From UHGV virus genome UHGV-0351052: a stretch of 64,000 nucleotides of DNA; one strand, given 5' to 3'. The translations under genes and the position numbers were made by a program. Shown here in pieces: positions 1-64,000 of the stretch. The notes under the pieces were generated by a model. That model made no database searches. It was not told the DNA's origin and saw only the letters and a program-made list of their open reading frames with translations. Position 1 is the first letter of the stretch. Each line of letters starts with the position of its first letter. The stretch comes from a virus.

Positions 1-447
1 TCGTTTGGGGATACCTTATCTCATCACCCAAGAAAGCAAGAAATCCTTAATAAAATTTCAAATGCAATTAAAAATAATAATTCAAAATTATCACCAGAAG
101 AACTTAAGCAAAAACATGGTAGACCTAAAGATATCAAAGGTAAAACTATAGAAGAACACTATGGGTTAGATCGTGCTATAGAACTAAGCAAAAAGTTCCA
201 AGAAAGAAACGCTGCGCTTAATATGAAAGGCATCAATAATCCATATTATGGACAGACACATACCAATGAAGTTAGAAAACGAATTTCTGACTCACAAAGA
301 GGTAAAAAGAAACCCCATCTAAGAGTAAGTATAGATGGGGTAGAATATCCAACAATAGCAGAAGCTGTGCGTCAAACCGGAATAAGCAGAAAACTTATAT
401 CTAAAAGATGTGCTCTAGATTGTTGGGAATCATATTTATACTGCTAA
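1..447 (+). CDS. homing-endonuclease-like protein, C-terminal portion (5' end lies outside window)
   Basis: Frame 1 is open from nt 1 to the stop at 445-447. Translation shows two NUMOD3-like repeats ([14 protein letters not shown]; [20 protein letters not shown]) then an I-TevI-like helix-turn-helix tail ([28 protein letters not shown]). Antisense to td. Confidence 0.5.
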
Positions 448-681
448 AGTTCTACATTCTTCATATTGTTTTTCCGTTAAAACAGTAATATCATAATAAC
501 AGTCAGAAGAAGTTTTAACTGTAGAAATTTTATTATCAAAATACTCACGAGTCATTTTATGAGTATAATATTTTTTGCCATAAATGATAATAGGCTGATT
601 TGGTCCTGGAACTTCTAACTCGCTTGGGTTAGGAAGTGTAAAAAGAACTACACCAGAAGTATCTTTAAATCGTAAAATCAT
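436..681 (-). CDS. hypothetical protein (81 aa) immediately downstream of td
   Basis: ORF track; start overlaps td stop region. No recognisable motif; not NrdA-like. Confidence 0.35.
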
Positions 682-989
682 ATTGCCATTTTCCCTTTAA
701 TTGCTGGATGCGATTCATAATTTTCAAGGATAAAATCTTTCGGTTTCATGTATTCAGTTAACCAGTAAAGCTGTGTTTCGGTGTCACAATTTCCAAACTC
801 TATAGGCCAATCAATTTTAAGTTCACACAGTTCTTTAGGCTCACGACGTAAAATTTCTTTACATTGCTCAGTATGATTCATATAGATGTGAGTATTACCG
901 CCAGAAAATATCAAATCTCCTGGGATAAGATTACACATCTTAGCTACAATATGAACTAACGCAGCGTATGATGCAATATTAAATGGTAG
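678..989 (-). CDS. td: thymidylate synthase, exon 2 (103 codons plus stop)
   Basis: Translation LPFNIASYA...[10 protein letters not shown] is the TS C-terminal half; exon begins CTACCATTT directly after intron 3' end ...CTGAACATAATG, as in T4 td. Confidence 0.9.
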
Positions 990-1435
990 CATTATGTTCA
1001 GATAAGGTCGTTAATCTTACCCCGGAATTATATCCAGCTGCATGTCACCATGCAGATCAGACTATATCTCCAACTTGTTAAAGCAAGTTGTCTATCGTTT
1101 CGAGTCACTTGACCCTACTCCCCAAAGGGATAGTCGTTAGGCATTTATGTAGAACCAATTCCATTTATCAGATTTTACACGATAAGTAACTAATCCAGAC
1201 GAAATTTTAAAATGCCTCTTCCATCTCTTTTCAAAATCTTTAGCACTTCCTACATATACTTTATTGTTTAAAGTATTTTTAATCTGATAAATTCCGCTTT
1301 TCATAAATACCTCTTTAAATATAGAAGTATTTATGAAAGGGCAGTCCTACAATTTAGCACGGGATTGTCTACTAGAGAGGTTCCCCGTTTAGATAGATTA
1401 CAAGTATAAGTCACCTTATACTCAGGCCTCAATTA
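990..1435 (-). ncRNA. group I self-splicing intron of td, short form (446 nt) with internally deleted endonuclease ORF
   Basis: Minus-strand sequence after exon 1 (..TTGGGT) reads TAATTGAGGCCTGAGTATAAGGTGACTTATACTTGTAATCTATCTAAACGGGGAACCTCTCTAGTAGACAATCCCGTGCTAAATTGTAGGACT, matching the remembered T4 td intron 5' end; 3' end matches ...GGGGTAAGATTAACGACCTTATCTGAACATAATG. Confidence 0.8.
1137..1304 (-). pseudogene. I-TevI homing endonuclease remnant (55 codons; N-terminal 33 aa fused in frame to C-terminal 22 aa)
   Basis: Encodes MKSGIYQIKNTLNNKVYVGSAKDFEKRWKRHFK-ISSGLVTYRVKSDKWNWFYINA; T4 I-TevI is 245 aa with these same termini. The GIY-YIG catalytic domain is truncated and the DNA-binding domain is mostly gone. 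Confidence 0.7.
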
Positions 1436-1984
1436 ACCCAAGAAAACATCTACTGATCGTTGATACCACTGCAAATCCAAATAGCCATTACGCACATTAA
1501 ACTGATAGAACATATGACAGGGCGGTAATGCCATTTGATTGATTTCAGCTGGATTCCATGCTGAAACGATTTGACGTCGATCAGTTGGTAATTTTTTAAT
1601 ACGATCAATAGTTTCAACTAATTGATCCACACCACCGAAATCACGCCATTGTTTTCCATAAATTGGACCAAGTTCACCACTATGATATCCTAGGTCTTTA
1701 GCCTGGTTTTCATAGTTATCGTCCCAAATAGTTTTACCTTGAATAAGACTACCATGAGTGCGAAGACGTAAATCATTAACATTGGTAGAACCGGAAATAA
1801 ACCATAGAAGCTCAGCAATGCATGCATTCCAGGCGAGCTTCTTAGTTGTTACTGCAGGAAAACCTTTGGTTAAATCCCAACGCAATTTAGTACCGAACAA
1901 AGCAATTGTTCCTGTACCTGTTCGGTCATCGATTTCATAGCCATTTTCAAAAATGTCTTTAATTAAATCTTGGTATTGTTTCAT
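1436..1984 (-). CDS. td: thymidylate synthase, exon 1 (183 codons)
   Basis: Translation [26 protein letters not shown]...QRSVDVFLG; the in-frame TAA at 1433-1435 is the first codon of the intron. Confidence 0.9.
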
Positions 1985-2562
1985 TTATATACTGATTCCG
2001 TAAGGGTTGTTACTTCATCTATTTTATACCAATGGGTTTCAACCATTTCACGCTTGCTTATATCATCAAGAAAACTTGCATCTAATTGAACCGTTGAATT
2101 AACACGATGCCTTTTAACGATGCGGGAAACAACTACTTCATCCGCATAAGGTAACGCAGCATATAACAGAGCAGGCCCGCCAATTACACTTACTTTAGAA
2201 TTCTGATCAAGCATAGTCTCGAATGGTGCGTTAGGACTTGATATTTGAACTGAACCGCCAGAAATGTAAGTTATGTACTGCTCCCAAGTAATATAGAAAT
2301 GTGCTAAATCGCCGTCTTTAGTTACAGGATAATCACGCGCAAGGTCACACACTACAATATGTCTACGACCTGGAAGTAATGTAGGCAATGACTGGAACGT
2401 TTTAGCACCCATAATCATAATTGTACCTTCAGTACGAGCTTTAAAATTCTGAAGGTCCTTTTTAACTCGTCCCCATGGTAAACCATCACCTAAACCGAAT
2501 GCTAATTCATTAAAGCCTTCGACGGTTTTAGTTGGAGAATAAGCGAATACCAATTTAATCAT
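1981..2562 (-). CDS. frd: dihydrofolate reductase (193 aa)
   Basis: Position upstream of td overlapping ATGA; length and sequence match remembered T4 Frd. Confidence 0.9.
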
Positions 2563-2807
2563 TACGCAAAACCCCTTTCAATAAACCATTCAGTGGCTTT
2601 ATTAGCATCAAAGAATAATTCTTCATACGTCTTTTCTTTGTTTTCAAAGACTGTCACACAGACACGTTGACATTCTCCACAGTATTCTTCTGACATACTC
2701 AAAGCGTCAGAAAACATTTCATTAAATTCATTTAAATCAGGATTATGCAATGCGTTAAAAATTGCATAATCGAATTCATCATTCATAAATTCAAATACAA
2801 AAATCAT
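2562..2807 (-). CDS. hypothetical protein (frd.1-like, 81 aa)
   Basis: ORF track; acidic small protein in the 32-frd interval. Confidence 0.5.
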
Positions 2808-63161: not shown

Positions 63162-63213
63162 TTAATATCCTCTTTGTTTTGGTTTATTTTATCAAAAAAT
63201 TTATAAAGCAATA

Positions 63214-63232
63214 TAGGAGCCGAAGCTCCTAT
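63214..63232 (-). terminator. hairpin TAGGAGC-CGAA-GCTCCTA upstream of a-gt
   Basis: 7-bp stem with UUCG loop on minus RNA; T-rich flank. Confidence 0.45.
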
Positions 63233-63406
63233 CCGCATAATACGCCATACAGAGGCTCATTAGAACTTTTAAATTTTTATGCGCTTATATGTTATAGTTC
63301 CTTCTGCTTTAGCTTTATCGTAAGACTCTTTAAAGCGTCTCATCATTTCCTCTTTAGAGAAACGAATTTTATTATAATCTATTTCAGAAGTCTGGGTGTT
63401 CATCTT

Positions 63407-63613
63407 TCATAACTGCCACCATTTTTTGACTTGATAAGAATCAACCCACACTTTCATATTAGGGTCTGCTCTTACAATAGGAGGATTAACTTCTTTAATT
63501 GAACTATCATGGTATTCTTTTTCAGAAATTTTCACACAAAGATGACCATTTAAAGATTCAGTAAATCCTGCATTAATTTTAAGACGCTTGAATTTTACGT
63601 GTGTAAGCATCAA
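63407..63613 (-). CDS. hypothetical protein (68 aa)
   Basis: ORF track. Confidence 0.35.
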   Translation of the reverse strand: MMLTHVKFKRLKINAGFTESLNGHLCVKISEKEYHDSSIKEVNPPIVRADPNMKVWVDSYQVKKWWQL

Positions 63614-63896
63614 TCATATCCTCAATCTGCGATCTAGTAGTCTTCCAAAGAATACTGATGAGTTCATCGTTATATGGCTGTTTCAGAATATCCCGACTTT
63701 TCTTGATAGCATATTCGTATTGAGCAAAATTATTATTTTCAGCTGCGATCTGAGCGTGCTTATAAAGACGATTCAGTTCGCGTTTGTTTTTAGACAATAA
63801 CTTATTTGCTTTTCTTTCTGCTTCAAGACGGTTCTTTTCTTCAATAGAAGAAATAAGCTTTTCCACTTCATCATTAATTTCGGGTTTATCAGTCAT
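63579..63896 (-). CDS. hypothetical protein (105 aa)
   Basis: ORF track; predicted helical, charged protein. Confidence 0.45.
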   Translation of the reverse strand: MTDKPEINDEVEKLISSIEEKNRLEAERKANKLLSKNKRELNRLYKHAQIAAENNNFAQYEYAIKKSRDILKQPYNDELISILWKTTRSQIEDMIDAYTRKIQAS

Positions 63897-64000
63897 ATTA
63901 TTTCTCTAATATAAAATAAAAATCATCATCTGTTAAATGATACCGATAGTTTAATTCTACACCATTAGATTTAAAAGCGGTATCATACGGATTTTCTGGA

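Follow-up and report, generated by a model that had tools for sequence, protein, structure and literature searches.

Mosaic Relationships of a 64-kb Tequatrovirus Genome Segment to Phages T4, T2, and T6

Can a T-even phage genome be described as the core of one classic phage fitted with the tail fibers of another? The question is raised by a stretch of 64,000 nt, here called the window, which represents ~38% of its source genome, the virus genome UHGV-0351052. A preliminary description had presented it as a natural recombinant within the T-even group that combines a T4-type core with T2-type fibers and a reduced endonuclease load. Alignment of the whole window with T4, T2, and T6 revealed no uniform identity to any single reference, and the claim of recombination was borne out by the site statistics given below. 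We show that the mosaic is real but ordinary, corresponding to the normal state of Tequatrovirus, and that nothing singles the window out as a T4 x T2 hybrid.

Relationship of the window to sequenced T-even phages

Three overlapping pieces of the window were compared by megablast with 50,697 phage records (INPHARED, August 2025 release). They matched hundreds of Tequatrovirus (T4-like) genomes, with a top identity of any record over 25 kb of at most ~97%. The best record differed between segments: SHFML-26 for 1-25 kb (95.6%), JEP6 for 25-50 kb (96.5%), and HP3 together with JEP6 for 40-64 kb (97.2%). We retrieved T4 (NC_000866), T2 (AP018813), and T6 (MH550421) for the window interval and later added JEP6 (MT764206, Tequatrovirus sgallinarium) and SHFML-26 (NC_031011), giving five references that were compared base by base. 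Identity at aligned positions was 95.3% for T4, 95.1% for T2, and 95.2% for T6, with 88, 86, and 93% of the window covered, respectively.

Analysis of blastn blocks showed that gene order is colinear with that of T4, T2, and T6 and that indels are confined to known variable loci. Of the 116 T4 proteins that we mapped onto the window by tblastn, 105 had a match, in the order expected from the T4 map: nrdA.2/td, 32, 59, rnh, 34-38, t, motA, 52, rIIB, rIIA, 60, mobA, and 39, followed by dda, modA/B, soc, 56, dam, 61, 41, uvsX, 42, 43, 62/44/45, 46/47, and a-gt. Colinearity and ~95% nucleotide identity to the type members place the window in Tequatrovirus. The best match of every component in sequenced phages was 88 to 99.9%, and annotated phages provided, for every gene, a match of at least 88% or else a clear Pfam match.

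Identity per kilobase ranged from ~77% to 99.6%, and the best of the five references alternated from kilobase to kilobase. We analyzed quartet-informative sites, i.e., positions aligned in T4, T2, and T6 at which the window base is shared by exactly one of the three and the other two agree, using run counts against shuffled labels for the significance of clustering and chi-square for heterogeneity. The 926 such sites were grouped unevenly along the window (chi-square 344, 30 degrees of freedom, p = 5e-55) and formed 290 runs, versus 567 ± 13 expected with shuffled labels. Clustering was still present when the fiber block was excluded (263 runs versus 422 ± 11). Unbroken runs of 85 and then 65 consecutive sites grouped the window with T6, and one of 52 consecutive sites grouped it with T4. 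The main tracts are the following.

7,663-13,335: tract shared with T6 in three-way-aligned sequence; T6 remains the sole matching classic phage on to ~17,100
22,336-22,717: tract shared with T4 (run of informative sites)
23,713-24,095: tract shared with T4 (run of informative sites)
42,203-43,728: tract shared with T4 (run of informative sites)
41,490-41,591: tract shared with T2 (run of informative sites)

Such a pattern might in principle arise by rate variation without recombination if the fiber, soc/56, and td regions were merely faster evolving, and the regions of low identity do coincide with loci under diversifying selection (adhesin, hypervariable early regions). Rate variation would lower identity to all references equally, however, whereas the runs of 85, 65, and 52 sites each favor a single reference, and genes 34 to 36 are 95 to 97% identical to T6 but 80 to 91% identical to T4 and T2. 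Because of these long runs with a single topology, we rejected rate heterogeneity without recombination, which we regard as highly improbable.

We also considered that the contig might be a chimeric assembly drawn from several T-even phages in one mixed lysate or metagenome; the long near-identical stretches that such phages share can mislead assemblers. No multikilobase block identical to a reference was found, perfect matches to the five references extended over 725 bp at most, and 720 substitutions unique to the window relative to T4, T2, and T6 are spread throughout. Genes that span tract junctions are all intact and in frame, and the independently sequenced isolates JEP6 and SHFML-26 exhibit a similar patchwork. 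The unique substitutions and the short longest perfect match indicate an old, independent lineage and not a recent or artificial chimera, which leaves misassembly with very little probability. A recent laboratory recombinant was rejected as well, given the same 725-bp limit.

The remaining alternative takes the preliminary description at its word: the genome would be essentially a T4 core that received T2 distal fibers and a second glucosyltransferase and then lost I-TevI, segG, and segF. Several T4 states are indeed present, namely, the split 39/60 genes with mobA and the translational bypass, the Stp allele, and the tracts shared with T4 at 22.3-24.1 kb and 42.2-43.7 kb, and I-TevI is clearly deleted. 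The informative sites nevertheless contradict a T4 core, since outside the fiber block 237 group the window with T4, 216 with T6, and 182 with T2, and the overall identities to the three phages (95.3 versus 95.1 and 95.2%) are nearly equal. Two of the genes relevant here are as follows.

4184..5092, minus strand: gene 32 (single-stranded DNA-binding protein), followed by a 115-bp 32-59 spacer without segG
22439..22519, minus strand: stp, T4-type allele, within the 22,336-22,717 block shared with T4, a run of 16 sites

Among the proposed T4 markers, Stp held, being 100% identical to T4 and JEP6 versus 83% to T2 and T6. The near-identical gp32 did not, as its amino acid (aa) identity is 99.3% to T2 and T6 versus 97.7% to T4, and Dmd, 100% identical to T2, failed in the same way; UvsX is likewise nearer T2 and T6. 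The fibers, the frequency of ba-gt in the genus, the mobility of the mobA cassette, and the empty seg and mob sites also count against this scenario, which we consider very unlikely.

It is thus highly probable that the window derives from a natural Tequatrovirus of its own lineage, differing by ~5% of nucleotides from each of T4, T2, and T6, and that it represents a fine-grained patchwork. A conserved genus-wide backbone would hold short tracts, from ~100 bp to ~10 kb, that group now with one relative, now with another: a ~9.5-kb fiber module like those of T6 and SHFML-26, a uvsX/ba-gt allele common to T2 and T6, short T4-like tracts (ac/stp/ndd and gene 56/dam), and nonclassic alleles (soc, gene 56, and td exon 2). 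To these would be added self-mobile elements with an irregular distribution across the genus, i.e., the td intron, the MobA/bypass cassette, and a free-standing GIY-YIG gene, while the I-TevI gene would have been destroyed through a repeat-mediated deletion. Going by established T-even biology, the mechanism would be homologous recombination among coinfecting relatives together with endonuclease-driven gene conversion (homing and marker exclusion). Mosaicism, swapping of adhesin and fiber modules, and an irregular distribution of homing endonucleases are textbook features of the T-evens. A review of T4 mobile elements (PMC2988022) relates localized gene conversion, and the exclusion of T2 markers, to the action of homing endonucleases and treats T-even mosaicism as established biology, as do two further sources (PMC2993671 and PMC1524935).

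Some points weigh against the patchwork explanation. The block breakpoints are approximate, and the August 2025 INPHARED release might not include a genome that resembles the window more closely and uniformly. An exact 40-mer of gene 37 had no match in IMG/VR, which shows absence from those collections only. Splicing, bypass, MobA activity, gp37 processing, the glucosylation pattern, and the receptor are all predicted from homology.

Tail fibers and DNA modification

The longest tract of the window contains the long tail fiber genes.

7471..13180, plus strand: genes 34, 35, and 36 (proximal half-fiber and hinge), T6-like block from ~7,660
13189..16284, plus strand: gene 37 (distal half-fiber, 1031 aa), T2/T6 class
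16322..17104, plus strand: gene 38 (glycine-rich tail-fiber adhesin, 260 aa)

Aa identities of gp34, gp35, and gp36 were 98.0, 98.7, and 97.7% with T6, versus 91, 95, and 65% with T4 and 90, 94, and 63% with T2. gp37 was 72% identical to its T6 counterpart, and its alignment with T2 gp37 was limited to 66 aa at the N terminus and a C-terminal region of 33% identity. For gp38, pairwise protein comparison gave 88% identity with T6 and 48% with T2; in a MAFFT alignment the values were 93% for SHFML-26, 88% for T6, 69% for JEP6, and 53% for T2, and the glycine-rich motifs were conserved, with the variation located between them. The closest DNA match of the 36-37-38-t region was that of SHFML-26 (94.1%). 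By sequence, the fiber block from ~7,660 to 17,100 (~9.5 kb) is T6/SHFML-26-like.

The description of the fibers as T2 type therefore has to be divided. As a class it stands: the domain composition assigns the fibers to the adhesin type of T2 and T6. gp38, correctly described as glycine rich, matched Pfam GP38 (6e-72) and Gp38_N (2e-20), and the T4 gp38 assembly chaperone had no tblastn match in the window. gp37 has a Peptidase_S74 domain at residues 915-972 (E = 1.4e-14) that is also found in gp37 of T2 and T6 and is lacking in that of T4. As a lineage the description does not stand, since identities of 98, 99, 98, and 88% with T6 for gp34, gp35, gp36, and gp38, versus 90, 94, 63, and 48% with T2, contradict an origin of these genes from T2 itself. 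The scenario of a T4 core with T2 distal fibers is affected by the same values.

The Peptidase_S74 region also agrees with the earlier view that gp37 is of the processed type. Ser915 lies within a conserved SDRRLK motif, 117 residues before the C terminus. Like its T2 and T6 counterparts, the C-terminal part is predicted to be a self-cleaving intramolecular chaperone; cleavage before Ser915 would release 117 aa, in agreement with the ~120 residues that processing removes from T2 gp37. Judging by domain homology, gp38 would be located at the tip of the virion, and the gp37 C terminus would be removed.

Which receptor might these fibers recognize? Close gp38 relatives have been reported to have the same receptor, and Tsx is the receptor of T6 (PMC12032242). 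As gp38 of the window is T6-like, Tsx is most likely the receptor and represents the leading candidate. According to an earlier hypothesis, small changes in gp38 might switch recognition between OmpA and Tsx (PMC12032242). In practical terms, the fibers are to be read as T6-like, with Tsx, and not a T2-type receptor, as the first candidate.

The genes for DNA glucosylation lie at two positions.

48245..50346, minus strand: uvsX (T2/T6 allele) and ba-gt, in place of the diverged uvsX 5' part, segA, and β-gt of T4
61959..63161, minus strand: a-gt (α-glucosyltransferase), aa identity 98.8% with T4, 98.5% with T6, and 91.3% with T2

UvsX was 100% identical to its T2 and T6 counterparts and 90.5% identical to that of T4. 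The interval between uvsX and gene 42 codes for a protein of 280 aa that is 96% identical to the β-glucosyl-hydroxymethylcytosine-α-glucosyltransferase (ba-gt) of T2 and T6 and matches Pfam TAGT; the T6 copy is annotated ggt. No tblastn match to T4 β-gt or segA was detected in the window, which bears out the earlier view of a second glycosyltransferase other than β-gt. The ba-gt segment was present in 475 phage records, set against roughly 450 to 480 records with coverage of the large query pieces of 80% or more. ba-gt is thus the commonest form in the genus and T4 β-gt the exception, and possession of ba-gt argues against a T4 core that acquired it from T2.

In the uvsX 5' part (48,700-49,420, minus strand), T4 has 9 to 29 mismatches per 100 nt adjoining its segA/β-gt insert, and T2, T6, and the window are near-identical. 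This divergence is T4's own and looks like a T4-specific replacement tract beside segA.

The genes of the hydroxymethylcytosine (HMC) pathway and of glucosylation are present, with aa identities to T4 of 97.6% for gp42, 74% for gp56, and 98.8% for the a-gt product, in addition to ba-gt. The DNA is predicted to contain α-glucosyl and gentiobiosyl HMC, like that of T2 and T6. The replication and takeover proteins were 97 to 100% identical to those of T4 by tblastn, and replication and host takeover are likely to be T4-like. The earlier expectation that predictions from T4 hold for replication and takeover, and not for host range (adhesin) or DNA modification (ba-gt), is therefore reasonable. More generally, T4 is an outlier for both β-gt and the gp38 chaperone, which makes it a poor default reference for those traits across the genus.

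Mobile elements and variable loci

The left end of the window contains two elements related to homing endonucleases, one on each strand.

678..1984, minus strand: td (thymidylate synthase), with exon 1 at 1436-1984, a group I intron at 990-1435, and exon 2 at 678-989
1137..1304, minus strand: I-TevI remnant open reading frame (ORF) of 55 aa (168 bp), left by an in-frame deletion
1..447, plus strand: gene for a predicted free-standing GIY-YIG homing endonuclease, truncated at the window edge to the C-terminal 148 aa

Alignment with T4, T6, and T2 showed that td is interrupted by an intron of 446 nt at the T4/T6 site, with the same exon junctions; T2 has no intron. The preliminary description had listed this intron as a T4-type feature, which is right as to its presence and site and not distinctive of T4, as T6 has a td intron too. 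Its core is almost identical to those of T4 and T6. In a local search, the match to Rfam RF00028 spanned the full model and scored 40.5 bits (E = 1.7e-8), short of the gathering score of 50, and a scan of the whole window at the Rfam gathering threshold gave zero matches; the identification rests on the alignment of the three phages and not on the Rfam score.

The intron is just 446 nt long because 570 bp of I-TevI are missing, in an exact in-frame deletion of 190 codons between two 9-bp direct repeats, CATTTTAAA. With these codons deleted and a 55-aa remnant left, the intron does not encode a functional I-TevI. A remnant ORF of identical size (168 bp) is annotated in phage e11/2 (vB_EcoM_112, NC_024125), and alignment of the td region in one piece with e11/2, F1, FN, and FL18 suggests that the last three also contain the same remnant. 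Phage N2 has a different, shorter td intron of ~248 nt with no room for an endonuclease gene, which indicates at least two losses of the endonuclease ORF.

At the 3' end of td (678-790, minus strand), the last ~35 codons (~110 nt) occur in at least three diverged versions, one in T4 and T2, one in T6, and one in the window. Exon 2 is conserved beside the intron, and a sharp local allele boundary thus lies inside an essential gene.

The free-standing GIY-YIG gene is located between nrdA and nrdA.2 on the strand opposite to its neighbors, where it takes the place of nrdA.1 and of the final codons of nrdA.2. By tblastn, the fragment matched residues 95-241 of I-TevI with 30% identity, and it contains the Pfam domains NUMOD3 and I-TevI_DNA-bd. 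The full-length homologue in phage Ozark has 243 aa and a GIY-YIG domain (1.1e-15); the window itself contains codons for the C-terminal 148 aa only. The gene is 99.1% identical in nucleotide sequence in Ozark and five other Tequatrovirus records and ~90% identical in Klebsiella phages of the genus Jiaodavirus, in which it adjoins thymidylate synthase. As ~90% is far above the similarity of the Tequatrovirus and Jiaodavirus backbones, a recent transfer of this gene between genera is suggested.

Might this gene act on the td/nrdA region and mobilize the endonuclease-less td intron in trans, i.e., by collaborative homing? A parallel has been described for the defunct I-TevIII, whose trans homing is promoted by MobE (PMC2790892). 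If this held here, the ~90%-identical GIY-YIG gene would mark a td-linked element spreading across genera. We examined a specific dependency between the gene and the td intron and found the gene together with every state of td: intron-less in Ozark, ECO07P5, and PKO111, with an I-TevI-bearing intron in sutha, with the ~248-nt intron in N2, and with the remnant-bearing intron in the window. This distribution counts against such a dependency, and we regard mobilization in trans as unlikely.

The topoisomerase genes contain a second mobile cassette.

28507..29039, minus strand: gene 60 (topoisomerase small subunit), with a 50-nt translational bypass at 28852-28901
29020..29838, minus strand: mobA, intact HNH homing endonuclease gene (272 aa, GTG start)
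29816..31366, minus strand: gene 39 (topoisomerase large subunit, split form), 98.6% aa identity with T4 gp39

These confirm the split gene 60 with mobA noted earlier, in contrast to T2 and T6, which have an unsplit gene 39 of 1818 bp. The bypass region of gene 60 is 100% identical to that of T4, and its 50-nt gap, take-off codon GGA followed by UAG, stem-loop, and landing codon GGA correspond to the signature of a translational bypass.

The GTG start codon of mobA overlaps gene 39, and the C-terminal 126 aa of its product correspond to T4 "gp60.1." In the T4 reference sequence, about a dozen scattered frameshifting insertions of 1 to 2 nt within the N-terminal two-thirds break the gene into "mobA" and "60.1." T4 mobA has been described as a pseudogene, with relatives encoding an active MobA of 269 to 279 aa between the split topoisomerase ORFs (bioRxiv 10.1101/2022.08.31.505936), and the predicted 272-aa MobA of the window falls within this size range. 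We considered that the T4 frameshifts might be sequencing errors and set this aside, treating the difference between the window and T4 as real because of the same pseudogene statement. The Pfam HNH match of MobA was weak (20.1 bits versus a cutoff of 21.4), and its N terminus showed 57% aa identity to that of MobE and 42% to that of MobB.

In 32 records the mobA cassette is 99.7 to 99.9% identical, and 41 records contain most of it. This uniformity, far greater than that of the host backbones, which differ by several percent, fits recent homing, and a mobile cassette so widely distributed does not point to a T4 core. MobA of relatives has been reported to introduce both the split and the bypass into T2 (bioRxiv 10.1101/2022.08.31.505936; PMC2988022). 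Considering the identity of the cassette in relatives and the published relatives, nicking by MobA and ribosomal bypassing probably also occur in the phage of the window, whose intact MobA and bypass cassette would suit as a natural source of active MobA.

For the other T4 endonuclease genes, segG, segF, segA, and mobB, no counterpart was found in the window by tblastn, the sole mobB match falling on the mobA N terminus. Their sites are compact and in the same arrangement as in T2 and T6, and the interval 37,817-38,679 of T4 (mobB region, downstream of a-gt) is without counterpart in the window. Since the sites are as clean as in T2 and T6, these cases would best be called absences rather than demonstrated losses, which argues against the derivation from a T4 core. 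The proposed losses of I-TevI, segG, and segF are accordingly confirmed for I-TevI, from which 570 bp are deleted, and undemonstrated for the two seg genes. A reduced endonuclease load is likewise correct relative to T4, which has five intact genes and the mobA pseudogene in the same interval; the window counts one remnant and two genes that are apparently intact, one of which is edge-cut, i.e., mobA is intact and the GIY-YIG gene is an addition.

Further loci that vary among the classic phages are listed next.

24522-24851, minus strand: DUF7418 ORF (109 aa) between denB and denB.1; an ORF occupies this position in T6 but not in T4
41483..42662, minus strand: soc, two small ORFs, and gene 56, diverged alleles with an empty segF site
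42708..43487, minus strand: dam methyltransferase gene, 97.7% aa identity with T4
51887..52135, minus strand: 82-aa ORF between imm.1 and gene 43, an insertion relative to T4, T2, and T6
55082..55303, minus strand: ORF43.1, matching Pfam Phage_RB18_ORF43 (2.4e-29)

Soc is 47 to 53% and gp56 72 to 74% identical in aa to the T4, T2, and T6 proteins, and nucleotide identity dips to 77 to 90% for all five references, such that the soc and gene 56 alleles appear to come from a lineage other than the three classic phages. T4, T2, and JEP6 also have the dam gene, whereas coverage gaps mark its absence from T6 and SHFML-26. The N terminus of the 82-aa ORF product resembles a signal peptide; this ORF (51887..52135) had no Pfam match, and another small ORF occupies its position in T2 and JEP6. 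ORF43.1 is absent from T4, T2, T6, and JEP6. The insertion falls precisely at the junction of the regA stop codon and the translational operator of gene 43; downstream of it, the operator hairpin and the gene 43 start are unchanged.

Comparison with named phages

These results have little significance beyond correct annotation, and the comparison with named phages places the window among them as follows. T2 shares with it the fiber class, ba-gt, identical UvsX and Dmd proteins, and the lack of seg and mob genes in the region. It differs by having no td intron, mobA, or bypass, by gp38 (48% aa identity) and a gp37 that aligns at its ends only, and by a-gt (91% aa identity).

T4 has in common with the window the split 39/60 genes, the identical 50-nt bypass, the td intron, the Stp allele, dam, modB, and a-gt (98.8%). 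In contrast, T4 has the gp38 chaperone, a collar-type gp37 tip, β-gt, a pseudogenized mobA, and intact I-TevI, segG, segF, segA, and mobB, and it is devoid of the GIY-YIG gene between nrdA and td and of ORF43.1.

T6 resembles the window in gene order, in its fiber proteins (gp34, gp35, and gp36 98%, gp38 88%, and gp37 72% aa identity), in the site of the td intron, in ba-gt and the identical UvsX, and in the lack of segG, segF, segA, and mobB. It differs by its unsplit gene 39, with neither mobA nor bypass, an intact I-TevI, the absence of dam, another Stp allele, and the motB.1/motB.2 region (83 to 87% nucleotide identity), with an overall identity of only 95.2%.

SHFML-26 has the closest distal fiber (36-37-38-t, 94.1% nucleotide identity; gp38, 93% aa identity) but differs by having segG, I-TevI, and an unsplit gene 39 and by the absence of dam. 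Phage e11/2 shows the same I-TevI deletion and a mobA cassette with 99.9% identity, yet its backbone is only ~96% identical over 25-64 kb, and it has nrdA.1 in place of the GIY-YIG gene.

The best overall reference is JEP6 (95.9% identity, 93% coverage), which combines the mobA cassette, the bypass, an adhesin gp38, ba-gt, dam, the td intron, and a T4-type Stp. Its I-TevI gene is intact, its genes 34 to 38 are of another type (81 to 93% nucleotide identity; gp38, 69% aa identity), and it has neither the endonuclease gene between nrdA and td nor ORF43.1. As the mobA cassette, the adhesin gp38, and ba-gt occur together in JEP6, the combination of T4-type and T2-type traits that gave rise to the description of a T4 core with T2 fibers is not special but common.

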